DNA from: a phage
NCBI GenBank assembly: GCA_026066175.1
Contig: GCA_026066175.1_4721.2
Reading direction: 5' to 3' (one strand)
Length of the DNA stretch: 64,000 nucleotides
Shown here: in pieces, positions 5,741 to 44,626 of the stretch
Layout: the number at the start of each line of letters is the position of its first letter
Numbering within the stretch: the stretch's first letter is position 1
The notes under the pieces: model-generated
Databases searched by the model: none
Seen by the model: the letters and a program-made list of their open reading frames with translations, nothing else
Told to the model about the DNA's origin: nothing
Made by a program: the position numbers and the translations under genes

Positions 5741-5782
5741 TATCGAAAAATAAAAAGAAGGAAGGGTGGGTAGAACCCACCC
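5741..5782 (-). terminator. intrinsic terminator downstream of fibre gene 5788..7941
   Basis: Hairpin gggtggg-tagaa-cccaccc (5764-5782) followed on the minus strand by a T-rich tract (plus strand aaaaataaaaagaaggaa, 5745-5763), starting 5 nt after the stop codon. Confidence 0.65.
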
Positions 5783-7941: not shown

Positions 7942-7973
7942 GATGCGCCCTTTACAAGTTGTTAGTAAGTGTG

Positions 7974-7991
7974 GGATACCCTGGGGTATCC
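7974..7991. promoter_or_regulatory. 18-bp near-perfect palindrome GGATACCC-TG-GGGTATCC in a divergent intergenic region
   Basis: 8-bp arms that are exact reverse complements, separated by 2 nt, located between the divergent starts at 7941 (minus) and 8046 (plus). Candidate operator or bidirectional regulatory hairpin. Confidence 0.4.
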
Positions 7992-8045
7992 TGTGTTAAC
8001 AGCGGTAAAATATTACTGTAACTATAAAATAAGGGGGCCTCTCCC

Positions 8046-9323
8046 ATGTATACATTGGTAAAAACTTACGGATTACCCGTAGGTTCCGGCACGGCCTGGA
8101 CAGCACTTGAAGCGGGTGAAAGCGTCCTGAGCACGTTGTTCGCAACGTATCAAAAACTCAAGATCCAGGTCCATGAAAGCTATACTGACCAGCAACAGGT
8201 TATCGATCTTTATACGTTTCAATCCGAGCTTCAAAACAGCAGCGATACGCTTAATGCTTGGCTGAAAGCGAAGTCGGATGCCCACACCAACCTTCGTGGT
8301 CAACCGGGTGAACTCTCGATTAAAGCCCACAAGCTTTATTGTCACGACGTTATCACGGTAGGCTTTCTTCCTAAAGTCGGTAATAGCGGCTATCATCCAA
8401 GCAACGCGATTCCTGAATCGGAACGTACCGATATTCTCCTAACAAAAGCAAACACGAATTACGAGAACATCGGCAAGCACTGCTTGTTCACGGTAGGGGG
8501 TTACGTACACCCTCACGTTTACGGTAAGGATGTTGGTGTCTATATCCAAGGCGGATTCAAGACAGCCCAACGCAGCCAGGAAAACGATATCGGGATGATC
8601 GATTTCAGCCGTATCGGAAGTTTGGAGATTCATGCGATCACAGAAGACATGATTGCGGATTCCACGAAGCTTTTACCGTACAAAGATGAGATGTATTTAC
8701 GCTTACCCCGTAAAGTTGCGGAAGATGAAACGGTTGCATTGGTGTTCGGAGGCTACTTACATCTCCTCGACGACTGTTACACGATCGTTAGCGATACGAC
8801 AGCAAAAATAAACTGCATCAACATGTTCTTGTACGAAAGGTATTTTCGTTCCCGTGAGTATCTTGACTTAACCTCCCTCGGTATTCTCTTGGACGAAGAA
8901 AACCCACAATCGGATATTGTTGCGAACCGTTTGCTGTCCGATAAAGCCTTGAAAGCCTGGGTGACCCATCCTTGCAGCTTTTGGGTTTATATCAAAGCAA
9001 CCTCGATTCAAGTTACGCAAGAACCGTTACCGCGCAGTGGCGTACCAGGACAGTATTTCTTAGGTAAGAAACCGGAAGGATTAATTCGCGCGGATCTTGG
9101 AGAACTGCCCGCGTACGTACAGACTTACGAGAAACCATTATGGGTACTTCATTCACGATGGGGACTTCGTAAGAACATGCTGTTTGAAAACACGTTATAC
9201 AAACACACACGTGTTAAACGCCTCAATGATACACCGTATCTCCATCAGGTGTGGTTGGAAACGCATGCGACGTTACAAACCGTACACAAGCTGGAACTGA
9301 TCGATTCCAGTCAGAAAAAATAA
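8046..9323 (+). CDS. hypothetical protein
   Basis: 425-aa ORF on the plus strand; SD aaggggg 5-6 nt before ATG; tataaaat box about 20 nt upstream; ends 16 nt before hairpin element copy 1. Confidence 0.7.
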   Translation: MYTLVKTYGLPVGSGTAWTALEAGESVLSTLFATYQKLKIQVHESYTDQQQVIDLYTFQSELQNSSDTLNAWLKAKSDAHTNLRGQPGELSIKAHKLYCHDVITVGFLPKVGNSGYHPSNAIPESERTDILLTKANTNYENIGKHCLFTVGGYVHPHVYGKDVGVYIQGGFKTAQRSQENDIGMIDFSRIGSLEIHAITEDMIADSTKLLPYKDEMYLRLPRKVAEDETVALVFGGYLHLLDDCYTIVSDTTAKINCINMFLYERYFRSREYLDLTSLGILLDEENPQSDIVANRLLSDKALKAWVTHPCSFWVYIKATSIQVTQEPLPRSGVPGQYFLGKKPEGLIRADLGELPAYVQTYEKPLWVLHSRWGLRKNMLFENTLYKHTRVKRLNDTPYLHQVWLETHATLQTVHKLELIDSSQKK

Positions 9324-9338
9324 ACAAGACAAACATAA

Positions 9339-9370
9339 CCCTCCTCCAACCCGTAAGGGAAGGAGGAGGG
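9339..9370. terminator. conserved GNRA-capped hairpin element, copy 1 (bidirectional terminator candidate)
   Basis: ccctcctcc-aa-ccc-gtaa-ggg-aa-ggaggaggg with cataa/catatg flanks, between convergent genes (stops at 9323 and 9380). Confidence 0.6.
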
Positions 9371-9379
9371 CATATGCCG

Positions 9380-10285
9380 TCAGGCTACGTATAACGTTAG
9401 ATAACCTTCAATGAGGGTGTTCATTACACTGAGTTGGAGAACGACAGCTTTACTAACATCCGTACGCACCCCGAACGGTAGCGTTTTGAAGTGCTCTGGA
9501 TCCGTAATAACTTTCGCGTTTTGTAGGTTAAGCGATCCTGGTATCGCTGACAATACCCAACGATCGTTAACCGTCAGACCAACGATCTCTTCAGAAAGTC
9601 CTAACTTCAGAGTGTTCATTTCTGCAATCAGGGCTTCTGAATGCGCATCGCCCGATGTTAACGTGTAACCATCGGTTAACGCCGTCAACACCGCATCCGA
9701 TACGAACCAGTTGTACGATACGATTGCACCTGGTAGTTTATCGCTATCCCGGTCGATGATGTAGTTAAGACCCGCCAACATGTTGTTGCGGATGAGGTTG
9801 TTCAGGTCGTTATGACCTGACGTCAACTCAACAAGCAATTGACCGATCCAGACTTGGTTACCGGGTTTCGGTGTTATTACAACCTGTATCGGCTGTTTGG
9901 ATTTGTCCAGATCAGCATCAACGATTTCGGTTTTATTCAGCAGGATGCCGTACGTTGAGGCTAAGACAGGCAATACCTCAGAAACCTTGGTCAGTGTATC
10001 TAAGGTTTCGATTTCTATCGGCCAACGATGTTGCCCACCAGACCAAATACCAAGTTTGCTAAGATCGATACGGTTGTAATAGATGTCGACGGAGTTCACG
10101 AGCCCGGAACCCGGTTGTGGGTGCACGGTTAACATACTGTTGCGTTTGTATCCCGTGCTTTCAGAAGCCTCACCGATAACCAGCTTATCCAGCGTCACAC
10201 CTCGAGCGTCGAAATCGCTATGTTTTCGAATCAGTCGGAAGAGAATCTCCTTTGATTCTAGCCCCAGGATTTCACTGTACTCCAT
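9380..10285 (-). CDS. hypothetical virion-associated protein, paralogue family A
   Basis: 301-aa ORF; shares the LPVLASTYGILL.../...VWIGQL region with 11202..12053 and 12064..12999; SD aagggg upstream. Confidence 0.65.
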   Translation of the reverse strand: MEYSEILGLESKEILFRLIRKHSDFDARGVTLDKLVIGEASESTGYKRNSMLTVHPQPGSGLVNSVDIYYNRIDLSKLGIWSGGQHRWPIEIETLDTLTKVSEVLPVLASTYGILLNKTEIVDADLDKSKQPIQVVITPKPGNQVWIGQLLVELTSGHNDLNNLIRNNMLAGLNYIIDRDSDKLPGAIVSYNWFVSDAVLTALTDGYTLTSGDAHSEALIAEMNTLKLGLSEEIVGLTVNDRWVLSAIPGSLNLQNAKVITDPEHFKTLPFGVRTDVSKAVVLQLSVMNTLIEGYLTLYVA

Positions 10286-15497: not shown

Positions 15498-18416
15498 ATG
15501 AACGATATAAATAAAGGGCGCGTCGCCCTCGAACGTCAAATGAGCAATAATGACGTTGCGAAGGCACTCATGAACAAATTTGTCGCTCCTGCTCCGCAGT
15601 CACGTCTTTATAACACACGTGAAGCGGAAGGAGCGAGCGGTCGTTTCGGGTTAGTTGTTCCCGACCAGATGACGATGAACACGGTGACGCGTGCGACCGC
15701 AACAAACGTCGAGGATAATAAAAACATCCTCGAGTTGTTCCCTGAACTTAAACGCGTGATGCAGATCTATGTTGCCGCGTTGACGAACCCTAACGATCTT
15801 AAGACGGTCGAGATGTTCATCGACAGCGAAGATTTCCCCGGCAGAGTCGCAGAAATCGTTCAGCCGATGATCGATACCATCGACACGCATTTTAAGAATA
15901 TCTATAAAATAAAGACGCTTATCCCTCGTATCATCGAAGATGTCTTCTTTATCAAGGGCAGCTATAACTTCGTTGTTCTGCCTGAAAGCACGCTCGATCG
16001 TGCTATTAACGGCAACGGCCAACTGAAACTCGAAGAATACGGATTTAAAAACAATCATTTCGCCAGCTGGGGGCTGCTGGGGAATGACAGCCGTATACGC
16101 AGTCAACATCAGTTACCGACAACGGTTTCGATGGAAGATTATTTTTCAGGCGTTAACGAAACCATCCCGTACGATCCGGTTGTCCGTATCGATAGCATCA
16201 AGTTTACCAACACGATGCTCCGTGATAAAGACGGTAAATTCATTGAAGCGAAGGTCGATATTCCGGATATGGTTACGGTTGTTGATAACCCAGACATCCT
16301 TCGCATGCCGATTTTACACCAACGTCGTGCGTCAACAGCCGTGCAACGTGCATTACGTGCAAACACCTTAGGCGGTAACGGCCTGGTGACGTTATCAGGC
16401 GATCCGACGCAAACCGCGAATCGACGTGAGCTGACACAAGAGCAAGTTAATGAGATCTGGAATAAACTAAACATCCAACGTCATACCAAGGTATCGCCTG
16501 TGTACGCACTAGCAACCCCGGATACCCTTGACCGTCAAAGCGTTGGTCATCCTGGCGTAATGCATGTACCACCTGAGTCATTAGAACCGGTTCATGCGCC
16601 TGGCGATCCAGAGAACCATATCGGTTATCTCGTCCAGCTGGATGAATTCGGTTACCCAGTACGTTTGGTTGAAGATGCTGCGTATTACAAACAGCTGGAA
16701 GGTCGACTGTCGAAGATCACGGCGGATATTGCCGGTACATCAAGCAACGGAATGGCGAGTGAGATGATCGGGGCAGCGAAGAACATGGTTCAAGGTACGT
16801 CGTGTAACCAAGTCGATATGTCAGCGTTTGTCTCGTCGTACGAATCACTGATGCAACGTTATATCGTTGAACGTATCGTTAACGGTTACCTCGGCAGTGC
16901 GGTAGAAATCGGTGCAACGTCGTCGTTCTATCTGTCGATGCTTGCCCGCAGTCTTGCTCACAAGCAAACCCGTGTTTTGTTTATTCCTCGTGAGATGGTG
17001 ACATACATCGCCTACGAATACAACAAATACGGGATTGGACGTTCCTTGCTTGAAAGTACGAAGATGATCTCATCGCAACGCGCGATGCTCATGGTTCAGG
17101 AACTGATGGCGAAAATCAAAAGTTCGTTGAACTATACGACGCTGAGCGTGATGCTCGAAGACACCGATAGAAACCCGGTTGATACCGTTGAGCAGGCATT
17201 GCACAGTTTTGCTCGTGTTTATCAATCTGGTTTCCCGTTGGGTGAAACCAACCCAATGGATATCATCAATGCATACGAACGAAGCTCGATTCGATTGAAG
17301 GTTGAAGGGAACAACCCACGCTTCCCGAAACTGAACACCGACGTTAGCGTTGAACAACGTAACTACCAATCCCCGGATGATGAGCTGATGGATCGTTACC
17401 GTCGTGATCATTTCATGGGTCTGGGTGTTTCTCCAGAGATCGTTGATACGTCCTACCAATCTGAATTCGCGGCGTCGGTGATTACGGCTAACGCGATGCA
17501 AGAGAAACAGTTCACGGTTTGTCGTGAGGTCGTCACGAATGGCTTAACTGATCACATCAAGAAGTATACGGCTTATAGTCCTGTGCTTCTGACGTCGTTA
17601 CGCAATACCGTTCGCGCGAATATGTCAAAGCTCTCTCAAGCGCAGCTGCAACAGCTCTTTGGTAGCGACTTCGAAAACGGTGTTATTCGTAACGTGAACG
17701 CGTATCAGGAGATTGATGATCGATCGGTGACAATGGATCTGGATTACACCAAACCGGAAGTCCAGGAAGTGATTGCTGACGCTTATGTCTCCATGTTCTT
17801 AAACAGCTTGCAGGTACGTTTACCGGATAGCAACGCGCGTCGCCTTGAAGATCAGGTACGTGAATATAATCAGTACAAGGAAGCGATTACAGCACAACTT
17901 GATGATTATTTAACACCGGATTATGTCATGGGTCTGGGTGGGGTCGATGAAACAACCCTGCAGATGATTCGAGCGTGCATCATTGGTACGGCGATGAGGA
18001 CATGGGCGAAAGAAAACAACTTCAATCAGGAGCTGGCCGATCTCTTTAGTCTCGACGATAAGAAGAATGCCGTCCAGGATTGGAAACGTGCATCCATGGA
18101 GCATATTGAAATCATGGGTAAATGCATGGGTGATTTCGCACTCTATATCCAAAACCTGACGAAGCAAATCGAAGAGAAGATGGGCGACCAAGCACAAGAC
18201 GGTAGCGTTTCATCTGACGGCTCATGGTCATCGGATTCCGGTTCGGATAGCGGTTCTTCCGATGATTTCGGTGGTGGTGATGACTTTGGTGGCGACGACG
18301 ATTTCGGAATGGAAGAAACCGAAGAATCCACCGAGGAAACCACTACGGAAGAAACAACCGATGAAACTGGTGATAATGCCGCATCAGAAGACGATACCGC
18401 AGGTGATATTGTCTAA
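15498..18416 (+). CDS. large hypothetical virion protein with acidic DDFGG-repeat C-terminal tail (portal-like size; function unverified)
   Basis: 972-aa ORF; SD aaggag 9 nt before ATG; C-terminus SSDDFGGGDDFGGDDDFGMEETEESTEETTTEETTDE... is low-complexity and acidic. Confidence 0.6.
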   Translation: MNDINKGRVALERQMSNNDVAKALMNKFVAPAPQSRLYNTREAEGASGRFGLVVPDQMTMNTVTRATATNVEDNKNILELFPELKRVMQIYVAALTNPNDLKTVEMFIDSEDFPGRVAEIVQPMIDTIDTHFKNIYKIKTLIPRIIEDVFFIKGSYNFVVLPESTLDRAINGNGQLKLEEYGFKNNHFASWGLLGNDSRIRSQHQLPTTVSMEDYFSGVNETIPYDPVVRIDSIKFTNTMLRDKDGKFIEAKVDIPDMVTVVDNPDILRMPILHQRRASTAVQRALRANTLGGNGLVTLSGDPTQTANRRELTQEQVNEIWNKLNIQRHTKVSPVYALATPDTLDRQSVGHPGVMHVPPESLEPVHAPGDPENHIGYLVQLDEFGYPVRLVEDAAYYKQLEGRLSKITADIAGTSSNGMASEMIGAAKNMVQGTSCNQVDMSAFVSSYESLMQRYIVERIVNGYLGSAVEIGATSSFYLSMLARSLAHKQTRVLFIPREMVTYIAYEYNKYGIGRSLLESTKMISSQRAMLMVQELMAKIKSSLNYTTLSVMLEDTDRNPVDTVEQALHSFARVYQSGFPLGETNPMDIINAYERSSIRLKVEGNNPRFPKLNTDVSVEQRNYQSPDDELMDRYRRDHFMGLGVSPEIVDTSYQSEFAASVITANAMQEKQFTVCREVVTNGLTDHIKKYTAYSPVLLTSLRNTVRANMSKLSQAQLQQLFGSDFENGVIRNVNAYQEIDDRSVTMDLDYTKPEVQEVIADAYVSMFLNSLQVRLPDSNARRLEDQVREYNQYKEAITAQLDDYLTPDYVMGLGGVDETTLQMIRACIIGTAMRTWAKENNFNQELADLFSLDDKKNAVQDWKRASMEHIEIMGKCMGDFALYIQNLTKQIEEKMGDQAQDGSVSSDGSWSSDSGSDSGSSDDFGGGDDFGGDDDFGMEETEESTEETTTEETTDETGDNAASEDDTAGDIV

Positions 18417-18451
18417 CCGTTCGTTAAAAAAAAAAAATAACACATAGTTAA

Positions 18452-18485
18452 CCTTCTCCCCAACCCGGAAGGGAAGGGGAGAAGG
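18452..18485. terminator. conserved GNRA-capped hairpin element, copy 2
   Basis: ccttctcccc-aa-ccc-ggaa-ggg-aa-ggggagaagg between convergent stops (18416 and 18503); preceded on the plus strand by an A12 run (18426-18437), which is a U-tract for the minus-strand transcript. Confidence 0.65.
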
Positions 18486-18502
18486 GCTATGCGCTATTTA
18501 AC

Positions 18503-18778
18503 TTATCTCGAGTTTAACCACGATTCAATTGTGGTGAGGTTGCTTCGCAATACGCGCCAACTAGGGTGTGGTGGGATCACAGCACCTTTGTCGATTACGG
18601 TTAGCTGAGCCTGGTACTTCTGTTTCATACGGGCTACCGTAGCGCTTACCGAAAGGAAAAGCTGGTAACGTTCGTACACCGTCAGTTCATCTTCCCGTCG
18701 AACTGCTCCTGTTGCTAACGTAATTTCGCGTAAGTCCTTTGCGTCCATCGGGACAGTAATGAGTTTATAATGACTCAT
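18503..18778 (-). CDS. small hypothetical protein
   Basis: 91-aa ORF between the hairpin element and the 18799-18820 hairpin. Confidence 0.5.
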   Translation of the reverse strand: MSHYKLITVPMDAKDLREITLATGAVRREDELTVYERYQLFLSVSATVARMKQKYQAQLTVIDKGAVIPPHPSWRVLRSNLTTIESWLNSR

Positions 18779-23290: not shown

Positions 23291-24673
23291 TTATTTCTTC
23301 GATGACACCTTCTCAAGAATCTTGAAAAAGGTCATACCTATACCGACAACGGCTGCGGTGATGCTTGCTGCAGCTTTCCAAACATCGACGTTACGTTGAC
23401 GTCGTGCTTCTTCCGCTTCACGTTGTCTTTTTGCCTCTTCATCACGTCGGCGTATTTCAGCAGCGAATTCCTCATGCTTACGTTTCGCGTCTTCGTCTCG
23501 GCGACGCATTTCAGCGATAAGTTCATCGTGCTTACGTTTCGCGTCTTCATCGCGACGTTTGAGTTCAGCCAGATGGTCATCTTGCATTTGTCGCCGAAGT
23601 TCGTCCTGACGTTTCATTTCGGCTCTATGCTGCTCATCACGCAGTTTTGCTTCAGCGCGATGGGTCTCTTGCATCCGTTCGATGATGTCTTTATGTTCAT
23701 CCGCCATACGTCGCATTTCAGCCATCACCCCTTTAAGGGTTTCTTCTGATGACTTACGTTCGTAGCTACGCTGGTCGAAATCATTTTTGTAGGCTTCCTT
23801 CTGGATGGGATCGCGCCAATGCAATGCCGATTCGCGGGTTGGAAAAACATTGTATTTCCACATTTCTTTTTCCAAATCTTCTACCGGTACGAAGACGGAA
23901 TCATTATTCCCGAAGGTAACCAACATCCCTGGAGCACCTGCCCCGTTCGTTGGTTTTATTTCGAACGCTTTCCCCAAGACGTTAACCCATAAGCTGTACG
24001 GATTATGGAAGTCTGGTGGCGTCCAATGGATGGTGAGCTGTGTTCCGAGAATCCGGAACCCCTCTGGTTTTCCTGTTAAACTTCGCGCACATGTTGCGAT
24101 ATAGGGGTGATCAATCCCTTTCGTAACATGGTCAGCGCTTTTGTATTCTCCTTTAACTTTTACGATTGCCACGTTAATTTGCGCGACATACACAGGTTGA
24201 TTAAAATTTAAGGCTGTTAGGTCTATTCGACATATCTCGTCCAAGGTGTCGTACCAATCTTCCTGGTCGAGCAACCTGGGTTTTCTCTCGACGCACGTAA
24301 TGCGTCGGATATGGGGTTTTCTTACCGCATAACCGCTTCGGTTTTTAACGCCCAGTATATCCCGTCGTCTACCGTCGTAGACGAAGTTCTTGAACGCGCC
24401 ATTCGCATTAGATATGTCATGGCTGTCAACTATTACAGGACTACGAAATTTTGAACGTCGTACGATCCTGAATGTGTTACCCTCTTCGACCCTACCTGGA
24501 ATGTATTGGAACATATTGTCGGATGTAATGACCAATACCGTATGCCCAGACTCATTAATACAACCCCACCCTAACTCTAAGTCATATAACGGTTCCTGGT
24601 ATCCGTCGATGCTATACGTGCCTGTGCCATCCCACGGCTCAAACGGCGTATCGCAAACCGGCATAGAGGACAT
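23291..24673 (-). CDS. C-terminally membrane-anchored protein with ER/K-rich charged helical stalk
   Basis: 460-aa ORF with a strong SD (gagggagga). C-terminal third is highly charged and repetitive (RRDEDAKRKHDELIAEMRRRDEDAKRKHEEFAAEIRRRDEEAKRQ), followed by a hydrophobic segment AAASITAAVVGIGMTFF and a basic tail. Confidence 0.65.
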   Translation of the reverse strand: MSSMPVCDTPFEPWDGTGTYSIDGYQEPLYDLELGWGCINESGHTVLVITSDNMFQYIPGRVEEGNTFRIVRRSKFRSPVIVDSHDISNANGAFKNFVYDGRRRDILGVKNRSGYAVRKPHIRRITCVERKPRLLDQEDWYDTLDEICRIDLTALNFNQPVYVAQINVAIVKVKGEYKSADHVTKGIDHPYIATCARSLTGKPEGFRILGTQLTIHWTPPDFHNPYSLWVNVLGKAFEIKPTNGAGAPGMLVTFGNNDSVFVPVEDLEKEMWKYNVFPTRESALHWRDPIQKEAYKNDFDQRSYERKSSEETLKGVMAEMRRMADEHKDIIERMQETHRAEAKLRDEQHRAEMKRQDELRRQMQDDHLAELKRRDEDAKRKHDELIAEMRRRDEDAKRKHEEFAAEIRRRDEEAKRQREAEEARRQRNVDVWKAAASITAAVVGIGMTFFKILEKVSSKK

Positions 24674-24885
24674 TGATTATCCTCCCTCAAACAGACAACA
24701 TACATGCATAATGCACGTCCCTTTTCTTGTTATCATCACAACGACAGTCGACGGTTTCAGCATCATTCTTAGCGCGAGAACGACCTTACGTGTTGTCTAT
24801 GCCTTTTTTCATTGAAGGCTTCTGTCACCTAGGTAATGTAAGCGTCAAATTTTTTCTAATCTAACCCAGCATAACAGCATAATAA

Positions 24886-24915
24886 CCTCCCTCAGCCCGT
24901 AAGGACCGAGGGAGG
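24886..24915. terminator. degenerate copy (3) of the conserved hairpin element, downstream of the capsid-candidate gene
   Basis: cctccctc-agcccgtaaggacc-gagggagg with cataataa and ttatg flanks, inside the 340-bp non-coding stretch after the stop at 25015. Confidence 0.5.
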
Positions 24916-25014
24916 TTGACTTATGTATCACGGTGCCGGATGAATGTCCGGTGTAATGAAACCATCCGCAACGTTGTTTTCAAGAACTTCATCCAACGAA
25001 GCAGCTCCGGTATT

Positions 25015-27237
25015 TCAGTTAGTCTGAACCGGCAGCTTGATGTTTTCAGTGTAGACCTTACGCAGGTTCACAACGTTGATCAGACCCAGCAGCGGGCAGT
25101 TGTTCACGAAACGGCAGCGCGGCTGAACCATGGTTTCTTTAGAAACCTGACCGTTACGAGTAACCTGAGCAACGGATACCAGTTCCGGTACGTACAGGAA
25201 CATACCGAAGGTCAGCGGATCCGGAGAACCCTGGATACCACGAGACAGGGTCACGAAGATCTTGTCGCGCAACATGACGTTCGGGTTGTCTACAACCACG
25301 AAGTTGAAGCTTACACCCACGGTGCGGAAGTCACCATCGGTCTGCAGGAACTGCGGGATGTAGTTGTCGGTTGCTACTACGCAACGCGGTTTCTCATCAG
25401 CGTTGGAAGACAGCAGCTGCAGAGCTGGCTGATAACCAGACTCGGAGTACATGCGGTACGCCATTTCACGAATCACGTTCATGATCGCAGCGGATACTTC
25501 AGCACGACGTTCTGCAGTGGTGGTACCCTGAACGGATTTCTCCAGGTCCAGATCGATTTCTTCGAACCACGGACGAATCAGGTAACGACCGAAACCTTCG
25601 ATCTGAATGTCACCGAACTGACGGAAGCGAGAAGTTGCAACCGCTTTCAGGGCGTCTTTGTAGCTGAACAGTTTCTCAACCATCAGGTTGTCGAAACGTG
25701 CGTTAGCTGCTTGGATCAGAACATCCAGGTCAGCAGCGTTTTCTTCCCAATCCAGCGGACGAGGAATGGAGAACGGAGCCAGCAGGCCGATTGCGTAACG
25801 TTCTTGCTTCATGTTGAAGTCAAGATGTTTACCGCGTTCACGACGGTTGCTGTTGTTACGACGGATACGCAGTTCGTAACCCACCAGTTTGAAGCTCAGG
25901 TCTTCAGCCAGATCTTTGAATTCCTGGCTCTTACGCGGTTGTTCGATGTTGTCCTGGTCAACCAGACGATACAGTTCAGCGGTAGCGCCATTAACACGCA
26001 GACCCGCTTTCTCTACGTTGGAAGAACCGTAAACTTCGATCGCCAGCTGAGCAGCAGATTTCGCATCGATGATGTCCTGCAGCGCTTCAGCTTTCGCACC
26101 TTTAACGTCAACGGTGTTCTCATCAACGAAGATGGAGTGGGTGTCGAACGCCAGGGTCATTTTGCGGAAGTCGCCTTCCAGGGATTTCTGGAAACCGTTG
26201 GTGATCAGACCGGATACGTCGAACGGAACGTAAGAGGTTTTGCTGTGCTTGGTGGATTTAATTTCCACCAGGATTTTGGTCAGCGTGATCTGAGCATCCA
26301 GCGCGTCAGTGTTGTCGCTGTAACCGTTAGCCAGAATGCTATCGTCTTCAGCGATACCGATCATGTCGATCAGTTTATCAACCGCCAGGTAAGACGTTTT
26401 GTAAGTAACGCCTTTGATTTCGATGTCGCGCGGAGCAACGATGGTTTTATCAACGAAGTACTGCGCGTTAGCATCGTCAGCACGGTAGATCGGATGCAGA
26501 TCGGTCACGTCGTTGGACAGAACGTCGTTGTACATGAACGCATCCAGCAGCGGACGACGTACCCAATCAGCCGGAGTACCATCACCGTTACGACGCAGGT
26601 GGTTGAACACCAGCGGACGACGGAAGGAAACGTCATAACCGATCTGGTTCGGAGCCAGAACGATGGTGTTGTACAGTTCGTTACCCATGCGGCTCAGACG
26701 AGACGCCTTCACGTTGAACACAACGGAGTACGGCATCATGTCACGCAGTTCTTTCTGGTCGTAGGACAGCTGAACCAGTTCTTCAGATTCACAACCGCAG
26801 GAATCCGCAGCCATCATGACGAAGTTAGCGCTGTCAACATCACGGCCGGACGGCGAGGTGCTGATGTTCATGGAACGTGCTTGTTTAGCATATTCCACCG
26901 GGTTGCCATGTGCCAGCATGATCAGCGCTGCAGCGCGAGCCTGCTGTGCGTTCATGGTGAACAGCTGTTCTTCAATACGTTGCTTCTCTTCCGGAGTTGT
27001 GGTTTCGAAGCCCAGCATGGACAGAACCGGTTCTTCAGCTTTACGGATGTCGCTGCTGAAGCTCTTAACATCCATTTCGTTAACCAGTTTGTCCATGGAT
27101 TTGAAATCAACCTTAGAAGCAGATTCCATAGACAGGAAGGTGTTTTCCAGACCTTTGTCTGCTGGTTTGCTACCATTAGCGGTCAGGAACTGGCGAGTGG
27201 CCGCGACCTGTTGGCTAAGAAGGGTTTTATCATTCAT
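25015..27237 (-). CDS. putative major capsid protein (highly expressed virion protein)
   Basis: 740-aa ORF with markedly optimised codon usage (CTG, CGT, GGT, AAC, TTC, GAA) compared with its neighbours; size matches jumbo-phage major capsid proteins; SD taaagga. The opposite strand carries a long stop-free antisense ORF, typical of highly biased genes. Identity not verified by similarity search. Confidence 0.5.
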   Translation of the reverse strand: MNDKTLLSQQVAATRQFLTANGSKPADKGLENTFLSMESASKVDFKSMDKLVNEMDVKSFSSDIRKAEEPVLSMLGFETTTPEEKQRIEEQLFTMNAQQARAAALIMLAHGNPVEYAKQARSMNISTSPSGRDVDSANFVMMAADSCGCESEELVQLSYDQKELRDMMPYSVVFNVKASRLSRMGNELYNTIVLAPNQIGYDVSFRRPLVFNHLRRNGDGTPADWVRRPLLDAFMYNDVLSNDVTDLHPIYRADDANAQYFVDKTIVAPRDIEIKGVTYKTSYLAVDKLIDMIGIAEDDSILANGYSDNTDALDAQITLTKILVEIKSTKHSKTSYVPFDVSGLITNGFQKSLEGDFRKMTLAFDTHSIFVDENTVDVKGAKAEALQDIIDAKSAAQLAIEVYGSSNVEKAGLRVNGATAELYRLVDQDNIEQPRKSQEFKDLAEDLSFKLVGYELRIRRNNSNRRERGKHLDFNMKQERYAIGLLAPFSIPRPLDWEENAADLDVLIQAANARFDNLMVEKLFSYKDALKAVATSRFRQFGDIQIEGFGRYLIRPWFEEIDLDLEKSVQGTTTAERRAEVSAAIMNVIREMAYRMYSESGYQPALQLLSSNADEKPRCVVATDNYIPQFLQTDGDFRTVGVSFNFVVVDNPNVMLRDKIFVTLSRGIQGSPDPLTFGMFLYVPELVSVAQVTRNGQVSKETMVQPRCRFVNNCPLLGLINVVNLRKVYTENIKLPVQTN

Positions 27238-27386: not shown

Positions 27387-28007
27387 TCACAAACGACGCA
27401 GGCGATAATGGATGGAACGATTGGTGCAATATGAACGGAACAGCGGTAATTGCGCAACTTCCGCAAGACTCATATTAATTCGCAGATGTTCGATAACCGC
27501 GCTGTAGTTATCGGCGATACGATCGCTCAGTAACTCTTCTGCCAATAAAGGAAGACAATCGACAACGATGGCGATCACATCCTCATTAACATAACGCACC
27601 CGAACATTGAGTGGACGTTTGTCTGGGCCGTAAGTTGGATCCGCCAAACGACGTTCAATATCGCGTGGATAGCTCGTCAGTAAATGGTAATAACCATTGT
27701 CATAACGATTGATGTACTCACACAGCACATCAACATTCTTCTCTGGCGGCAAACCTGTTTCGTCATAGTGATACGCAAACATACCACCAAGCAGGTTGTT
27801 AAGATGAACCGCAGGGTTCGCTTGTTCGTGTTCTTTCGTGATGAAGAAAGGCACGTTCTGGGCTGCGAAATAAAAACCTACATCATTGGGCGATAGTATG
27901 CCGAAAAGACTTTTAGGGTCTAATAACACCTGTAAGTCATCACGCGCATTTCGAATAATCGCGTGTTCTACCCAATTCGGAACGACGAGATATCGGAGTT
28001 CCTTCAT
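27387..28007 (-). CDS. hypothetical protein
   Basis: 206-aa ORF; SD agagg 8 nt upstream. Confidence 0.6.
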   Translation of the reverse strand: MKELRYLVVPNWVEHAIIRNARDDLQVLLDPKSLFGILSPNDVGFYFAAQNVPFFITKEHEQANPAVHLNNLLGGMFAYHYDETGLPPEKNVDVLCEYINRYDNGYYHLLTSYPRDIERRLADPTYGPDKRPLNVRVRYVNEDVIAIVVDCLPLLAEELLSDRIADNYSAVIEHLRINMSLAEVAQLPLFRSYCTNRSIHYRLRRL

Positions 28008-28045
28008 TATGATTACCTCTTTGCAAGTATCGAAAGGATTGAGTC

Positions 28046-29657
28046 GATGGACCCAAAACAGATAGCCATTAAGATTATTACGTTACTGTTTCGTAATGCA
28101 CAATTGAACCATCCCGATCCCAGTACGATCGAACATGTTAAATCCGTCTTAGATAAAATCGAACCCCCGAAAAACCATCTCACCGTTGATGTGGATAGAG
28201 AGGTTTTCAACAACCTGATGAACACCATTCATTGGATGTTGGAACAACCGTTATCGGAACCTTTCGATAAACAACAGTTGCTACAAAGGATACGTTTAGA
28301 TTGCCTGGAACAAAGCCACGTTTACGAAATTCTCGCCGACGGATTGTACGATATCGAAGACGATGCTCATATCAGTAAGGTCTGTTCGCTTTACTACAAT
28401 GAATTACGTAATCTGATTACCCGTCGTCGTGTATTTGAAACCTTTAAAAACACGTACATGGATATCAGTAACGGCCGCCTTGGGGACAAAGAATTTTTCG
28501 ACGCGATGGCGAATTTGAAACTATCGCTAGATACCATCGAAATGGATACTGAAAACCCCGAAGAAATGTCCTGTATGATTGACGGCTTCATCGCTGATAG
28601 TGAAGACGATATTGAAAAAGTCGAACGTATGTTCGTTAAGGCGATGGAGCGTAACAGTCCTGAAGGGGGATTTGTCACCGGCTGGCAGGGGTTTAATAAA
28701 ATGTTGGGGTCGGTCGGCGTATTACGTCGTGGTACTCTAGGATTGATTGGCGCGATGCAACACCGTAATAAATCAGGGGTGTTATTAAAACTTTTCACCC
28801 ACCTGGCGTTGTACAATAAACCCCATTTCTTTTTTCCGGAGCGCGCAAAGAAAGCCTTATTGATTCATCTCTCAACAGAGAACGAAGTTGAAGAAAACAC
28901 GCTTCAAATCTACAAGAACATGCGAGAACAGGAAACAGGTGAATATGTCGATATTCGTAAGATTGACCCACGTGAAGCTTCACGCTATGTACTGAACGTT
29001 TTCAATAATGCGGGGTTCTCTGTCTGCATGCGTCGTGTTGATGGAATGAGCTATAAACAACTTGCTAACCTTATCGACCATTTTGAACGTATGGGTTATG
29101 AAGTTATGGCTTTGTTCATCGACTATCTAAAAATGTTCTCGTCAGAAGGATTAGATAGGAATGGGCCTACGGGCGCTTGGCTGCAAGAACTCTTCAACAA
29201 AGTACGTAACCTCTGTAGCGTTAAACGTATTTTAGGTATGACCGTACACCAGTTGTCTTCTGATGCGAAGATGCGGGCACGTGATGGTAACGATGAAGAA
29301 TTTGTTGACCAAGTCGCCGGTTTAAGTTACTGGGATGGATGTAAAGGGATTGACCGTGAGATTGACCTTGAGGTAATTGTTGATATCGTTAAGGAACCTG
29401 GCAAACGTCAAAGCTGGCAGGTCTTTGCGCTAGGGAAAGACCGTCAACCGGATAACGGCTCAACAAAACCTGAAGATAAACATTTTGCGATGCCGTTCCA
29501 AACCATCGGGATGCTTCCTGACGATTACGGTAAGAAAGCGGTGTATTGCCGCAAGGTTGGCGGACAACCGGTCTCTGAAGGAGGCAAAGGTCCGTGGAAC
29601 AAGTTTGATGAACATGCCGCACCGAGTAATGAACTACAATTTGATTTAGAATTCTAA
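28046..29657 (+). CDS. hypothetical protein
   Basis: The ATG at 28046 (MDPKQIAIK...) is preceded by aaagga; the upstream in-frame extension from 27963 overlaps the divergent minus-strand gene and lacks an SD. Ends 26 nt before hairpin copy 4. Confidence 0.65.
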
Positions 29658-29682: not shown

Positions 29683-29714
29683 CCCTCCTCCAACCCGGAA
29701 GGGAAGGAGGAGGG
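29683..29714. terminator. conserved GNRA-capped hairpin element, copy 4
   Basis: ccctcctcc-aa-ccc-ggaa-ggg-aa-ggaggaggg between convergent stops (29657 and 29732); an A10 run lies upstream on the plus strand. Confidence 0.65.
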
Positions 29715-29731
29715 TTATGACCGTTATGGTG

Positions 29732-30058
29732 TTAACTTATCGTCATGAATTCCGTAGGTGAGAATTTCCAACCGTTTTCATTGAGAAGCGTGTTAAGTTT
29801 CGCTGCAACGATAAGCCATGCGTGCATGGCTGTCACATCGTATTGGCGATTAACACGGCGTTGGTTTTCGATATCGATTTGCTCCCGTTCGGTGATGTTT
29901 GGGTAGAGCGCGACGGCGCTGGGCTTCCCTAACGCATCACTCATTACCGCCTGACATTCACTGATGATGTTATTGAGATGATAATTGTAAACCGTTCCAC
30001 GCATAACACGATGACGGCATTCAATAATAGCGTCGTAAATAATTTCTCTTGTTGTCAT
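29732..30058 (-). CDS. small hypothetical protein
   Basis: 108-aa ORF with ATG start, 6 nt from the stop of the next gene. Confidence 0.55.
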   Translation of the reverse strand: MTTREIIYDAIIECRHRVMRGTVYNYHLNNIISECQAVMSDALGKPSAVALYPNITEREQIDIENQRRVNRQYDVTAMHAWLIVAAKLNTLLNENGWKFSPTEFMTIS

Positions 30059-32894: not shown

Positions 32895-33299
32895 CTAGTC
32901 TATCTTAAGCCAGATTGATGGTAAATGGAAATAGACACCGTCGTCTATTTGTTTTTGTGTTAACGGGGTTGGAAGTTTAGTGATGATGTTGTCGATCGAT
33001 TCCTCAATGTCACTTGTTAGAACGTCGATGTGGTAATAGCGAGCGATGCGTCCGTTACGTTCTAGCCAAAACAGACGAACGAAATCACTATTTTTATTAA
33101 TCGCATTCATAAACACGATTTGATGAAGCAGGATCATTCTTGACGAGGGGTAATCGTCAGGACGCGGAGTCATCACCAGTTCCCAACGTTTCCGTCGCAC
33201 GCCTTTTTTGAATTGACTCGTTACATTTGAACCACTTTTACCTAAGTTTATAACAAATTGCTTTAGACGATACGGTGTGTTTCTGTAAATATCGGTCAT
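32895..33299 (-). CDS. hypothetical protein, paralogue family B (N-terminal-domain-only member)
   Basis: 134-aa ORF; N-terminus MTDIYRNTPYRLKQF and C-terminal ...HLPSIWLKID align with the first ~130 aa of the two longer paralogues and stop at the LP(S/T/D)IY(L/I)K domain boundary. Confidence 0.55.
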   Translation of the reverse strand: MTDIYRNTPYRLKQFVINLGKSGSNVTSQFKKGVRRKRWELVMTPRPDDYPSSRMILLHQIVFMNAINKNSDFVRLFWLERNGRIARYYHIDVLTSDIEESIDNIITKLPTPLTQKQIDDGVYFHLPSIWLKID

Positions 33300-33383
33300 T
33301 GATTATAGCTCCAGGTTATTATCACTAAGGTAATATAGTCGTGAAATAAACTGGAGTAATAGAAATAATAAGACGGCATAAGA

Positions 33384-33414
33384 CCCTCTCCCAACCCGGA
33401 AGGGAAGGGAGAGG
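33384..33414. terminator. conserved GNRA-capped hairpin element, copy 5
   Basis: gcataaga-ccctctccc-aa-ccc-ggaa-ggg-aa-gggagagg, 6 nt downstream of the stop of 33420..34787; identical over ~39 nt to copy 7. Confidence 0.6.
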
Positions 33415-33419
33415 AAGTA

Positions 33420-34787
33420 TTAAACGGTTGGACGAACGGTGTTGTCTTTTTCCGGTGCAAGCCAGAGTGTGACGGTACCGTGGCAGGTCCATTGGGGTTC
33501 ACGTACAGAAGAACCCGCCATCGTAACAGCGCAATCGGTACGCATAACAACGCCGTAAGCTTCGCAAAGGTTATTGTCTTGCATCCAAACAACTTTAGCA
33601 GGCATGCCAGGATACAGTAAATCCATGTTGGCATGTTCCCATACCAACTGCATCGTTCGACCGCGTAACCCAGCAGTATTACTTAATTCCCGCCAACGGT
33701 TATCCGTTACCCGGCCCATCCCTTTTGCTACCTTCACGTTATCACTACGTTCTTCCGTCACATACTCGCTTACGTTCACGGTACGACTGATGATCGTATC
33801 ACCGCCCTTCGATAACGTCATTCCCTGGCTCATCTGACTCGCTGAAACAAAGCGTCCACCCGCATTACCTAACAATGAAGCTGCGTTGCTGATATCGCTG
33901 ACCGACGCACCTCGTGTACACGCGATCTCCACGTATTTGTCACGATTGATCCAGGTATTTTCCATGCCGGGAAACATATCGGCCGGATAATTGTAAAAAA
34001 TCGCCGTACGTCGACCGTCGGAGAAACGGGTTTCGTCATACAGAGGGTAGATATACAAATACGGTGATTGGTAATAGCAACCAACGTCCGCTGAATAAAT
34101 ACCGACCTGGTTCTGGATCTTATCAACAAGATCCATCGCGTTGGTACCATGAGGAAGAATCAATAACTTGAACAAATCATTGTTATTCGGTGCGACAATA
34201 TCAACACCCTGCATTTTGAAGCCGGTATCCGCTTCAACAGCAGAAAGGATTTTACTGAATTCGAGTCGCAGTACATCCAGAACTTTCGATCCAGTATAGT
34301 TCTCACCGGTTTCTGACTGCATGAAGCTTTCAAGAACAGGATCGAACAACTGGAATTGAAGATCGACCATCTGCTCGTAATCTTTCTTCGCAGAATCGGT
34401 TGCAGTACGTTCATCGGTTGCGGACATACGACTGTCTACGGTGGTTAAACAAACTGCCCGATAGACATAAGCTTGTGCGGCATCGTCTACGGTTTGGCGT
34501 TGTCCACGCATCAGACTGTACGCCTGCACGATGACGCGCATTTTAAGTTGTTGCTGGTACGGTAAAATGTATTTTCCGTAACTGCCCGGAGGGAACTTTA
34601 CAGAGATATAAAGTTCATCTCCTGCGTTACGTTCATAGTCTCGATACGTGTGGACTTGAGTCACTAAAGGAACAGACACCGTCATTGACGGCGTGATTAA
34701 TTCCGCGGTGACTTTATACGCAACAGCAACTGCTTCCTGCGCAAATGTACCGATATACCGTCCTAACGGCGTCTGTTTGTAATCCAT
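33420..34787 (-). CDS. hypothetical virion protein
   Basis: 455-aa ORF with ATG start, followed by the hairpin element. Confidence 0.65.
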   Translation of the reverse strand: MDYKQTPLGRYIGTFAQEAVAVAYKVTAELITPSMTVSVPLVTQVHTYRDYERNAGDELYISVKFPPGSYGKYILPYQQQLKMRVIVQAYSLMRGQRQTVDDAAQAYVYRAVCLTTVDSRMSATDERTATDSAKKDYEQMVDLQFQLFDPVLESFMQSETGENYTGSKVLDVLRLEFSKILSAVEADTGFKMQGVDIVAPNNNDLFKLLILPHGTNAMDLVDKIQNQVGIYSADVGCYYQSPYLYIYPLYDETRFSDGRRTAIFYNYPADMFPGMENTWINRDKYVEIACTRGASVSDISNAASLLGNAGGRFVSASQMSQGMTLSKGGDTIISRTVNVSEYVTEERSDNVKVAKGMGRVTDNRWRELSNTAGLRGRTMQLVWEHANMDLLYPGMPAKVVWMQDNNLCEAYGVVMRTDCAVTMAGSSVREPQWTCHGTVTLWLAPEKDNTVRPTV

Positions 34788-36708: not shown

Positions 36709-38260
36709 AGCGTTTCACTCCTACGATGGTACCGACAAGGATTCTCGGTACGAATAAACTACGATGTTTGAACCACGAAGCGGTTGTTGGGATACGTTTG
36801 ATGGCTTCGATAAGCCCGATTAGCGTATAGCACCCCCGACTGTTCTTCTTAGGCCAGTACTTTTTATCTAGACCTAATACTGCAAACAGTTCATCCACCA
36901 GATTGGGATAACAACACAACGCTTCAAGTGTTTCAACCTGTAACTGACTTAAATCTAACAGTATCGCTAGACGAACGTGGTAATCACTCCGTAGGTCTAA
37001 TGGATCTTTCGCTTCAAGATCACCAACGTCGGTTAATGTCCACGCGTCTCTTGCGTAGCGGTATTTACCCTTCCAAACCTCAAGGAAAAAAGGAGACCGG
37101 TAATGACATTTTGACCATTCTGGGTACTCACGGAACCACCGAACAAGATCGGGATGGAATTCACCTTCTTCGGCTAACGAGTCCAACGTCACCAACAGGT
37201 TAGGTTGTTCAGGATCGATGGCAAGCAGCGCGGTGAAAAGCGTGCTTGATGGAAGTTCGGTTTCCACACTTGATGGCGGTAGCCATTCATCCAGATCAGG
37301 ATACCGATACGCTTGAATCGATGCACCCTGCTCGGGCAAGAACGAATCACGAAGAATGTCCTGATACTGCACCACCATACCACCACGACGCGCACGGGAT
37401 TTATCACGCACCGAAAGGCTCGGTTTGTAAAGGTACTCTTCGGGGAGTATCTGTTGGTGTACTTGAACAGGATACCGCGCTACGATGTGTGTTGGCGTGT
37501 CGTATGTGTAACGGTAAGAGAAGGTTGCGTTGTACGAAGAACTGTTCTCATTCTTCTCGGGTTTCGGAGCGTCGGTGAAATCAAATTGACCAGAGATCTC
37601 TTCTTGCATTTCCCTGATAACCAATTTAACGCTCTTACCGTCACCTGCAACCGTCGTCATGGTGGTTGCGCGGTTGTCGAACCCGTCTCTAAGGTATTCG
37701 CTGAACTTATCCCCGTAACCCGCTATTGCTTCCCGGTGTGTATGAATAACTTTTAACAACATGAGAAACTGTGTTGGGATCGCATAGCTGTATTCGGCGC
37801 TAAGGAAGGCAGCGACGTGCTGACTTGTCAGCAAACGTTTCATGTCGTACCACCAACGTTCGGCGGTGACCTGATCCTCGAAACGTTTGGTGATTTGCAT
37901 GGTCGCAACCATCGTACTGTAAACAGGCACTAACGACACACCAAGGTTACGGTCTTCAAATACTGGAAGACTGTTTCGTTTGTAAACGGTATCGTACATG
38001 GACGCCTGTTCTTCAGGGACAACGTTAAGCTCGATTTGGATAAACCCGTCAGCAGGCCCCTTTACATCCTGATCAACAACTTGCGGTGGTTGCTCGTTCG
38101 CGGCGCTCATTTTAGCGTGAAGCGCTTCCCCTCGAAAAAGAATGTTCTCCCGACTATAATCCCACCCGCAAAGCTCGCTGATCTGCCGTAACACCGCGAT
38201 TGCAACCGGACGTGTTACCGTCGCGTATACGTCATTGATTTTTCGATCAAGTTTAGGCAT
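36695..38260 (-). CDS. hypothetical virion protein (start uncertain)
   Basis: The ATG at 38260 (MPKLDRK...) has SD gagga with a 9-nt spacer; the track start at 38287 is a GTG placed directly against an aaggag. Confidence 0.6.
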   Translation of the reverse strand: MPKLDRKINDVYATVTRPVAIAVLRQISELCGWDYSRENILFRGEALHAKMSAANEQPPQVVDQDVKGPADGFIQIELNVVPEEQASMYDTVYKRNSLPVFEDRNLGVSLVPVYSTMVATMQITKRFEDQVTAERWWYDMKRLLTSQHVAAFLSAEYSYAIPTQFLMLLKVIHTHREAIAGYGDKFSEYLRDGFDNRATTMTTVAGDGKSVKLVIREMQEEISGQFDFTDAPKPEKNENSSSYNATFSYRYTYDTPTHIVARYPVQVHQQILPEEYLYKPSLSVRDKSRARRGGMVVQYQDILRDSFLPEQGASIQAYRYPDLDEWLPPSSVETELPSSTLFTALLAIDPEQPNLLVTLDSLAEEGEFHPDLVRWFREYPEWSKCHYRSPFFLEVWKGKYRYARDAWTLTDVGDLEAKDPLDLRSDYHVRLAILLDLSQLQVETLEALCCYPNLVDELFAVLGLDKKYWPKKNSRGCYTLIGLIEAIKRIPTTASWFKHRSLFVPRILVGTIVGVKRYGAR

Positions 38261-38636
38261 CGATGTCGTCCTCGCTAATTTCCTCACCTCCTTGTTGTCG
38301 ATATCCGGTATAATGAATCAGACTGCTCTGTAGAAGCTCTTTAACGAGCCCTAGACGCGTTTTATCTGTTTCATTGGACGTTTCCATTAATGTTTCTATT
38401 TCGTTGTTTAAAACAGCGTATAGCGCTTCTAACGGCAATCCTTGGATGATTGGTTTGATGGTACCTTCCGGTAGTGCCGCAACAGGAATCTGCACGACGG
38501 TTTCGTGTGCGGTATGTGGGTTAATACGGCAAATATACATACCGGGTACTGAATGTCGCGGGCACGCCGCTACCAAGCATGTCTGTTGCTGCGCACCGTT
38601 AAGTGCGAGTGAAAGAAATTTTGCTTCACGTGTCAT
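38253..38636 (-). CDS. small hypothetical protein
   Basis: 127-aa ORF with ATG start; ends in an acidic tail EEISEDDIDA. Confidence 0.55.
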   Translation of the reverse strand: MTREAKFLSLALNGAQQQTCLVAACPRHSVPGMYICRINPHTAHETVVQIPVAALPEGTIKPIIQGLPLEALYAVLNNEIETLMETSNETDKTRLGLVKELLQSSLIHYTGYRQQGGEEISEDDIDA

Positions 38637-38682
38637 CGCAGATTCCTGTTTGAAAGATAAGATATCACATGATGGTCGACAG

Positions 38683-38716
38683 CATAAAGCCCACCCCGAA
38701 GGGCGGGCTGTTTATG
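38683..38716. terminator. hairpin cataa-agcccaccc-cgaa-gggcgggct-g-tttatg downstream of the 1127-aa gene
   Basis: 9-bp GC-rich stem (one mismatch) plus 5-bp A/T flanks that extend the stem, 9 nt after the stop at 38725; it has the same CATAA...TTATG flanks as the conserved element family. Confidence 0.5.
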
Positions 38717-42123: not shown

Positions 42124-43227
42124 TTAAAAGTAATATTTCAGCGCCTCGCGAGAGACGTCAAGCATAGCCGCCGTTGAGTTCGTGAAGAACTCGGCATAGC
42201 CCACAAGCGGCACCTTGATCCACGCGGTATACGCTGTAAGGTATCGAGAAAGGGCTACCATAGCATCATCAGAAGCTGTAATGGATAACTGACCTTGTTG
42301 ACGATACACATCGTTCAGTTTTGCTTGCAGGTTCCCTGCGATCTCAAGTAATTCGTTGGCGTACTTTTTACGATGGTACGTAATAAGCAGATCAACACCG
42401 GTATTTACCGATTCGAGTAAAACGCCAATCTGCTCCAACGACGGCATGGTTACAACCATATCACGCTCAACAGACACGACGTCCTGAACTTCAAATCGTG
42501 CTGATTGAATCGCGAGAGATTGTTGGATTGCTCCAGAACCCGTTGCGGTAACCTGATCAAGTCGTAGCATCCGGTTACCTAACAACGTCGTGTTAACCAG
42601 CCGCGATTCATTCAACGCACTGTACACCTTGTTCAACAGCGTGTGTGCATCACGATTAATCACATCGATTAATGCGGTATCCGTCTGTTTTAAGATGATG
42701 TCAAGCGCTCTGTCTAACGTGTTTGCGAACTGTTTGAAGTCATCACGGAACGACGTTGACAACAGGTATTCTGCGATCTTCAGGTTTTGTTTGTATAACG
42801 TGTTTCCGGTGGTGAAGTCGAACCCGAAACTGTTTCCATAACGCAAATGTGGTGCGAGCGTGGGTGAGGCTTCAAAACTTTGCGCGATGGGTTTATGTCC
42901 AACCGCTTTCGTGTATTGACGACGGATATTACTCAGCTCGATTTGCAACGCACGACTGCGGTCGATATACCGTGCGATGAAAGCAGTGATATTCCGCAAC
43001 GTTGTCCAAATCGCATCGATGATCGCTTTGATGATTTTCATCGCAAGCTGGTTGTATGATTCCAGGGTAAGGAGATCAGCGCTTTCTGTAGCATAACCGG
43101 TTGCCAGAGCGCCGCCCGCTTGCTGATAAATAAGCTGATGGATTTGTCGTTGTGTTGCCGTCTCAGGTAGAGGTAAGGTTTTTAACAAGCTTAAGGCTTG
43201 GATTTGTCCATCATTGGTCTGCAGCAT
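42124..43227 (-). CDS. virion protein, paralogue family C (head-internal/ejection-type protein candidate)
   Basis: The ATG at 43227 (MLQTNDGQ...) has SD gagga with an 8-nt spacer; the track start at 43290 would overlap the upstream gene by 80 nt. Shares the central A..A(L)..W....I helix region with 43211..48721 genes. Confidence 0.55.
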   Translation of the reverse strand: MLQTNDGQIQALSLLKTLPLPETATQRQIHQLIYQQAGGALATGYATESADLLTLESYNQLAMKIIKAIIDAIWTTLRNITAFIARYIDRSRALQIELSNIRRQYTKAVGHKPIAQSFEASPTLAPHLRYGNSFGFDFTTGNTLYKQNLKIAEYLLSTSFRDDFKQFANTLDRALDIILKQTDTALIDVINRDAHTLLNKVYSALNESRLVNTTLLGNRMLRLDQVTATGSGAIQQSLAIQSARFEVQDVVSVERDMVVTMPSLEQIGVLLESVNTGVDLLITYHRKKYANELLEIAGNLQAKLNDVYRQQGQLSITASDDAMVALSRYLTAYTAWIKVPLVGYAEFFTNSTAAMLDVSREALKYYF

Positions 43228-44591: not shown

Positions 44592-44626
44592 CAAGTCAAA
44601 AGATAACCGGATATTAACGGCATATA

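Follow-up and report, generated by a model that had tools for sequence, protein, structure and literature searches.

The closest described relatives of the elements reported here are the transcription terminators of the chimalliviruses phiKZ and 201phi2-1. RNA 3' ends mapped in phiKZ by ONT-cappable-seq define 61 terminators that share the motif 5'-BCCYCCCCHWWDGGGRRGGBYTTATKYYGT-3', in which a stem-loop is followed by TTAT (Putzeys et al. 2024, PMC10914365). The motif shared with phiKZ is also the main terminator motif of 201phi2-1 (motif A, n=59); eight selected terminators of this phage are active in reporter assays, and those in which two motifs co-occur have elongated stems and higher activity (PMC11512511). 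An overlapping word serves at the other end of the transcription unit, with the late promoters of phiKZ being defined by TATG, its G forming position +1 and every position being needed in vitro (Yakunina et al., PMC4666361). A 2026 structure of the phiKZ nvRNAP shows the beta-like subunit GP123 bound to TATG on the non-template strand (PMC12809450). In our reading of the phiKZ sequence, the capsid gene is followed by acagaCATAG-GCCCTCCC-ttcg-GGGAGGGC-TTTATGTTGT, and 100 kb of this sequence hold about 15 comparable sites flanked by CATAA/TTATG.

The window, as we term the whole stretch of 64,000 nucleotides analysed here, is predicted from its sequence to derive from a Goslar-like E. coli phage, a chimallivirus (nucleus-forming jumbo phage), and has 86.9% nucleotide identity over 4 kb with Escherichia phage Goslar (vB_EcoM_Goslar). 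Genes for RNAP beta/beta' fragments, which are typical of chimalliviruses, are present in Goslar at positions outside the stretch matching the window. The gene map of the window was resolved via the Goslar annotation. At 9334-9376, the window reads CATAA-CCCTCCTCC-AACCCGTAAGGGAA-GGAGGAGGG-CAT-ATG. The two arms in their fixed spacing (CCCTCCTCC-N14-GGAGGAGGG) recur exactly in four copies, compared with 0 expected in shuffles, and looser scans based on the arms and on perfect stems extend the family to eight. The remaining four copies are compensated stem variants (CCTTCTCCCC/GGGGAGAAGG, CCCTCTCCC/GGGAGAGGG and AACCTCCCTC/GAGGGAGGTT); a first-pass annotation had given (A)GGAGGAGGG as the 3' arm, which is wrong for some copies, and one copy reads on the minus strand. 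Each hairpin is built on a perfect stem of 8-10 bp with a pyrimidine 5' arm (at least 80% pyrimidine in 8/8 copies) and a purine 3' arm, closed by a 2x2 A/A internal loop and a CCC-GNAA-GGG cap (together the apical module AA-CCC-GNAA-GGG-AA). For the core, the folding energy is about -24 kcal/mol whichever strand is taken.

All eight copies, and a ninth hairpin of different sequence at 38688, lie 5-97 nt past a stop codon. Gaps between convergent genes hold four of the eight (copies 1, 2, 4 and 8). Copy 1 (9339-9370, both strands) has the stem CCCTCCTCC/GGAGGAGGG and the apical sequence AA-CCC-GTAA-GGG-AA, folds at -24.2 (+) and -25.2 (-) kcal/mol, and separates genes 8046-9323 (+) and 9380-10285 (-). 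The box downstream of it, TATGCCGT at 9373-9380 (+), contains the ATG on which the first-pass annotation had focused, and the CATAA at 9334-9338 is a TTATG box for minus-strand transcripts. Copy 2 (18452-18485, both strands; stem CCTTCTCCCC/GGGGAGAAGG) lies between genes 15498-18416 (+) and 18503-18778 (-), with TATG at 18488-18491 (+) and 18443-18446 (-). Copy 4 (29683-29714, both strands) lies between genes 27963-29657 (+) and 29732-30058 (-) and has the box TATGACCG at 29716-29723 (+); its minus side carries a T10 run without a box. Copy 8 (55617-55648, both strands), between genes 52603-55596 (+) and 55658-59320 (-), is followed by TATGCTGT at 55651-55658 (+) and preceded at 55612-55616 by CATAA, read as TTATG on the minus strand.

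Copies 3, 5, 6 and 7 and the 38688 hairpin occupy gaps between tandem minus-strand genes. Copy 3 (24884-24917, -) is directly 3' of the major capsid gene (25015-27237, -; identified by Goslar gp41) and is followed on the transcribed strand by the tandem boxes TATGCTGT and TATGCTGG (24866-24881, -); using G-U, its minus-strand RNA forms 15 continuous pairs. Copy 5 (33385-33414, -), between genes 33420-34787 and 32895-33299, has TATGCCGT on the transcribed strand at 33373-33380 (-). The same box, TATGCCGT, stands at 44617-44624 (-) beside copy 6 (44627-44658, -; genes 44666-45958 and 43211-44512). Copy 7 (47336-47367, -), between genes 47390-48721 and 45968-47311, has the box TATGCTGC at 47325-47332 (-) and a further TATG at 47370-47373 (+). 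The ninth site reads CATAA(38683-38687)-AGCCCACCC-CGAA-GGGCGGGCT-GT-TTATG(38712-38716), and the presence of the family's CATAA/TTATG flanks around a different GC hairpin at 38683-38716, as originally noted, can be read directly in the sequence. On the transcribed minus strand this hairpin is AGCCCGCCC-UUCG-GGGUGGGCU (38688-38709), set between genes 38725-42108 and 38253-38636, with TATGCTGT at 38679-38686 (-) as its box and the TTATG at 38712-38716 on the plus strand.

These sites have largely escaped annotation. In the stretch that matches the window, the Goslar record marks three terminators, two of which are orthologues of copy 1 (27746-27777) and of the 38688 hairpin (55080-55101), both labelled 'terminator'; the other seven of the nine sites are unmarked because predictors expect U-tracts. 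A terminator scan of the window with an 8-nt loop limit did not list the hairpin family on account of that limit, and Rfam gave no match at gathering score anywhere in the window. A literature search for a TSS/TTS study or for RNA 3'-/5'-end mapping of Goslar-like phages found none. An extra 10-bp hairpin, GGTATGGAGC-gtg-GCTCCATACC, lies at 44569-44591 between copy 6 and the start of gene 43211-44512; at this site Goslar and two IMG/VR relatives have another hairpin, TCTGAACCG...TTGATTCAGA, which carries the 'terminator' label in Goslar (60927-60948).

The apical loop varies in orientation between orthologous sites of the window, Goslar and the IMG/VR relatives, being inverted while stems and flanks remain in place. 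Such flips affect copy 4 in UViG_3300045988, copy 6 in the window and copy 7 in UViG_3300011560; the loop of copy 6 is inverted relative both to the other copies and to its own orthologues, and the element reads on the minus strand. A 12-bp palindrome at 59279-59309 likewise has the loop ctgaaaa in the window and ttttcag in Goslar. Recurrent flip-flop of loops through hairpin-mediated inversion or gene conversion appears to have occurred in this lineage. Copy 5 and its neighbourhood (33300-33419) are missing from UViG_3300045988 (L035), where unrelated sequence stands instead; terminator and adjacent genes thus show a joint presence/absence polymorphism. The apical module CCAACCCGNAAGGGAAGG also tops C-run/G-run hairpins (aaaaCCCCCC...GGGGGG) in many IMG/VR viral contigs that have no nucleotide match to the window (loci L008-L059, e.g. 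L009, L011, L014, L029 and L050). In one 61.7-kb contig (L045), which may be another chimallivirus, CCAACCCGNAAGGGAAGG caps a non-pyrimidine stem whose CATAA...TTATGCCGT flanks are complete.

The hairpins show covariation. Among 29 distinct family hairpins from the window, Goslar, two IMG/VR relatives and one further contig, pre-filtered at six or more of eight pairs, 92.6% of cells are paired and double changes occur at seven pairs, with shuffled and slid controls giving far lower values. The compensatory changes preserve the pyrimidines of the 5' arm. Where the two strands differ in stability, the transcribed strand is the more stable thanks to G-U pairs: copy 3 folds at -28.1 kcal/mol on the transcribed minus strand vs -20.5 on the plus strand, and the 38688 hairpin at -18.4 (minus, transcribed) vs -14.0 kcal/mol (plus). 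Goslar and the two IMG/VR relatives retain both hairpins and boxes at the orthologous positions. Direct observation covers the anatomy of the elements, their position and strand association, their covariation and their conservation in four chimallivirus lineages.

The first-pass annotation had reported a strong Shine-Dalgarno (SD)-like 3' arm followed by ATG in seven of eight copies, and our scans agree: an ATG lies 2-5 nt past the perfect stem in 7/8, always inside TATG, the exception being the plus side of copy 5 (33385). By a rough estimate, chance would supply such an ATG at ~6% of sites. CATAA stands directly 5' of five of the eight copies. Perfect-stem hairpins were scanned across the window and the whole Goslar genome, and their sides were sorted into those with and those without a gene end upstream on the same strand. 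For pyrimidine/purine hairpins, TATG occurs within 12 nt on 46/58 gene-end sides vs 6/24 other sides (Fisher p=7e-6) against a random background of 2.4%, these counts being partly non-independent as window and Goslar sites are partly orthologous. By genome, gene-end sides with TATG within 12 nt number 11/12 in the window and 36/47 in Goslar. The proportion is similar whether the hairpin stands before a gene start (19/22) or faces the end of a convergent gene (27/36; p=0.34). The TATG rate depends on the gene end upstream and is the same with or without a gene downstream; the box thus goes with the stopping of transcripts and not with a promoter. The 6/24 non-terminating sides are well over background, and something besides termination on that strand contributes to TATG, whether stem extension, antisense transcripts or history.

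Anchored on TATG, the 3' flanks give the consensus (T/A)TATG-C-Y-G-T with T-rich sequence beyond, mostly 1-3 nt from the stem (in the window, for example, caTATGCCGT, aaTATGCTGT and tTATGACCGT). Six of the eight TATGCYGT words in the window adjoin the hairpins. The degenerate box TATKYYGT is not enriched across the window (17 found vs 20 expected), and only the TATGCYGT form beside hairpins is informative. The conserved feature is thus a 3' box, (T)TATGCYGT, on each transcribed strand, and since many sites terminate transcription of both strands, the box of the opposite strand appears as CATAA and produces the CATAA...TTATG symmetry. Tails with at least five U in the eight nucleotides after the stem include TTATGTTT (copy 1, minus side) and exclude CATATGCC and AATATGCT (copies 1 and 8, plus side). 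Several sides have a tail other than a classical U-tract (e.g. CAUAUGCC), which leaves room for a mechanism distinct from that of canonical intrinsic terminators.

These features closely resemble the mapped terminators of phiKZ and 201phi2-1. Common to both sets are a C/T-rich 5' arm and G/A-rich 3' arm, TTAT(G/T)YYGT within a few nucleotides, placement past gene ends, bidirectional layout at convergent genes, many copies per genome and a chimallivirus source. The window elements differ in having a stem of 9-10 bp vs 7-8 bp, a lineage-specific AA-CCC-GNAA-GGG-AA cap in place of a simple tetraloop, and often A or C as the first letter of TTAT; the phiKZ and 201phi2-1 terminators were defined by 3'-end mapping, those of the window by sequence. 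Taken together, hairpins and box are likely, by analogy (probability about 0.8), to be transcription terminators of the phiKZ type, which would form a conserved class in chimalliviruses. The view of the hairpins as terminators, implicit in the first-pass annotation, is upheld by the match to the phiKZ motif, the placement after stop codons and the strand-tied box. From the 3'-end mapping in phiKZ and 201phi2-1, we infer that RNA 3' ends would likewise form at the hairpins of this phage. Erwinia phage Ea35-70 keeps the box (cTATGCCGT, gcTTATGCTGC) although its hairpins carry the purines in the 5' arm; as judged from such comparisons, the box, not arm polarity or loop, is the part of the chimallivirus terminator that is conserved across hosts.

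Canonical intrinsic terminators of bacteria and T4 are similar in that a stable GC-rich hairpin lies past the stop codon and T-rich DNA follows further on, but differ in that their stem is followed by a U run, whereas the tail in the window is TATGCYGT. In the 50 kb of T4 scanned, no TATGCYGT box was found after hairpins. The canonical class coexists in the window, which holds a few such hairpins: at 5764-5782 (-), for example, GGGTGGGT-TCT-ACCCACCC is followed by TTCCTTCTTTTTATTTTT without a TATG box, an arrangement conserved in Goslar (24174-24190).

The hairpin-adjacent TATG could alternatively be the core of a phiKZ-type late promoter, making each site a cassette of terminator and promoter that restarts transcription of the downstream gene or, at convergent sites, launches antisense RNAs. 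The first-pass annotation had raised a TATG-containing promoter motif adjoining the terminator on the premise that phiKZ-type late promoters contain TATG. That premise is correct (PMC4666361), and the tetranucleotide is identical and on the non-template strand. In all four tandem copies (4/4), the transcribed strand bears TATG ahead of the next gene. TATG and CATA are also among the most depleted tetranucleotides of the window, Goslar and phiKZ, as expected of a functional word: against a maximal-order Markov expectation, the observed/expected ratio of TATG is 0.65 in the window, 0.70 in Goslar and 0.78 in phiKZ (100 kb, 70000-169999), compared with 0.88 in T4 (rank 40; 50 kb, 80000-129999), and the depletion affects both the sense and antisense strands of genes.

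The promoter reading is nevertheless improbable, given that TATG follows gene ends and hairpins whether or not a gene lies downstream, unlike a phiKZ late promoter. Its frequency without a following gene (27/36) is the same as with one (19/22), and this part of the earlier proposal is not borne out, with TATG following gene ends and not downstream gene starts. The divergent promoter regions 7942-8045 and 51359-51393, which are free of hairpins, have TATG on neither strand. TATG is only weakly enriched in hairpin-free DNA upstream of genes, where its density is 4-5 per kb vs 8-19 per kb beside hairpins. P119L, the model late promoter of phiKZ, lacks a hairpin on its upstream side and continues downstream with a sequence unlike the CYGT of the box. 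Finally, a separate promoter-like motif, TAYATTACCTWRGTGA, stands between two of the terminators and the next gene. Its two exact copies, at 24825-24840 (-) and 33322-33337 (-), each precede a minus-strand gene and are both conserved in Goslar. TAYATTACCTWRGTGA resembles the phiKZ middle-promoter motif AAanTTACc, and a related sequence, AAAATATTAC, occurs in the divergent region 7942-8045; from their sequence, both are candidate promoters.

Another reading takes the flanks mainly as a means of lengthening the stem, CAUAA pairing with UUAUG and the word TATG having no meaning of its own. As originally proposed, the flanks are A/U pairs that extend the stem to ~14 bp, and this holds in part: in minimum-free-energy folds, CATA and TATG form 4-5 flank pairs across a small internal loop in copies 1, 3 and 7 and in the 38688 hairpin. 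The longer stems and greater activity of the two-motif terminators of 201phi2-1 are in keeping with this reading (PMC11512511), as is the presence of the motif on 6/24 non-terminating sides. The proposal does not extend to copies 5 and 6 or to the centroid fold of copy 8, where such pairing is absent; elsewhere it requires internal loops that vary, and with them the register. Pairing could be served by any A/U-rich complement, but the 3' side is specifically TATG and then CYGT, the latter without a conserved partner on the 5' side. The motif is strongly biased to the 3' side of the transcribed strand (46/58 terminating vs 6/24 non-terminating sides), and the word is kept in phages infecting Pseudomonas, Erwinia and E. 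coli. As the main role of the flanks, stem extension is very unlikely; it is at most a secondary benefit of the terminator and may add strength.

RNase E typically acts where a single-stranded, AU-rich sequence lies beside a stem, as the box would, and all hosts concerned are Gammaproteobacteria, which possess this enzyme. The elements could by this token be sites of RNA processing or stability, at which an endonuclease such as host RNase E cuts in the AU-rich box and the RNA is trimmed back to the hairpin, with no polymerase termination involved. Long-read 3'-end sequencing and two-reporter assays give the same outcome for cleavage as for termination. This account is highly improbable, as the box is a specific conserved word, more than an AU-rich sequence, and holds the tetranucleotide bound by the phage polymerase (PMC12809450). 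The genome-wide depletion of TATG in chimalliviruses, which is not seen in the T4 sample, further points to a phage-specific reader.

Hairpins that sequester a ribosome-binding site are well known, for example in the early transcripts of T4 e and soc, and resemble the elements in the window in that an SD-like sequence is paired in a stem beside an ATG. By this analogy, the GGAGG in the 3' arm and the ATG would constitute a structured translation start, for small peptides or for regulation. The spacing of 2-5 nt between GGAGGAGGG and the ATG is good SD-start geometry, and real genes of this phage use GGAG-type SDs. The open reading frames (ORFs) that would result span only 4-42 codons on the strand read by the first-pass annotation and 3-42 over both strands; the short ORFs it listed (MPSGYV, MSVY, MLLSYVIAILLF...) are exactly as quoted and, as it stated, not conserved. 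They share neither length nor sequence and are not kept in Goslar, where MPSGYV of copy 1 is MLLCYI (4/6 residues differ), and at convergent sites they run antisense through real genes. Unlike in T4 e and soc, no conserved ORF follows the hairpin and the arrangement is not kept in related phages.

The SD would in addition be locked inside a hairpin of about -24 kcal/mol, and the ATG would fall at the RNA 3' end if transcripts stop at the box. The 38688 hairpin has the box without a GGAGG run, and in Ea35-70 the box persists though the purine arm is the 5' arm. Since the box there follows arms of opposite polarity, the GGAGG-then-ATG geometry is incidental. Published reviews describe chimallivirus transcription as physically apart from ribosomes, which makes co-transcriptional coupling unavailable. 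Translation initiation at these sites is thus extremely unlikely, and the earlier suggestion of a sequestered ribosome-binding site does not survive. GGAGG is the purine arm of the stem and ATG a piece of the TATG box, and neither signals translation. Some observations (the identity of copies including their flanks, the loop inversions and the presence/absence at one site) point to a mobile REP/MITE-like palindrome, which is rejected as the primary explanation in view of the G-U asymmetry, the strict post-stop placement and a box tied to one strand. The uniform sequence of the copies may still reflect spread by duplication or gene conversion.

In the terminator reading, the functional unit would be a very stable RNA hairpin with a (T)TATGCYGT box 1-3 nt downstream, leading into T-rich DNA. 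Acting together, the nascent hairpin and the box would halt the phage RNA polymerase or set the 3' end of the mRNA. At convergent sites, a box on both strands would create a bidirectional terminator, with additional A-U pairs as an option. The hairpin left on the 3' end would probably protect the exported mRNA from 3' exonucleases.

Phage terminators of the phiKZ type are an already known class, to which the Goslar-like phage would add a further case. Its hairpins and boxes offer a rule for annotating the ends of transcription units in Goslar-like phages, together with the caution that small ORFs should not be called from an SD-like arm and an ATG. A more speculative proposal, which we consider rather unlikely, is that the same pocket of the phage nvRNAP reads TATG both at the late promoter and in the terminator box, such that TATG 1-3 nt past the hairpin would act as a sequence-specific element for pausing or termination that replaces the U-tract. 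As GP123 is a core subunit, we infer that it would stay in the enzyme during elongation. The literature searched contains no paper linking the TATG of the terminator box with that of the promoter. Shared reading of the word would explain both the avoidance of TATG/CATA and the conservation of the box across phages of Pseudomonas, Erwinia and Escherichia. If the proposal is true, a single four-base word would flag where chimallivirus transcription units begin and where they end.
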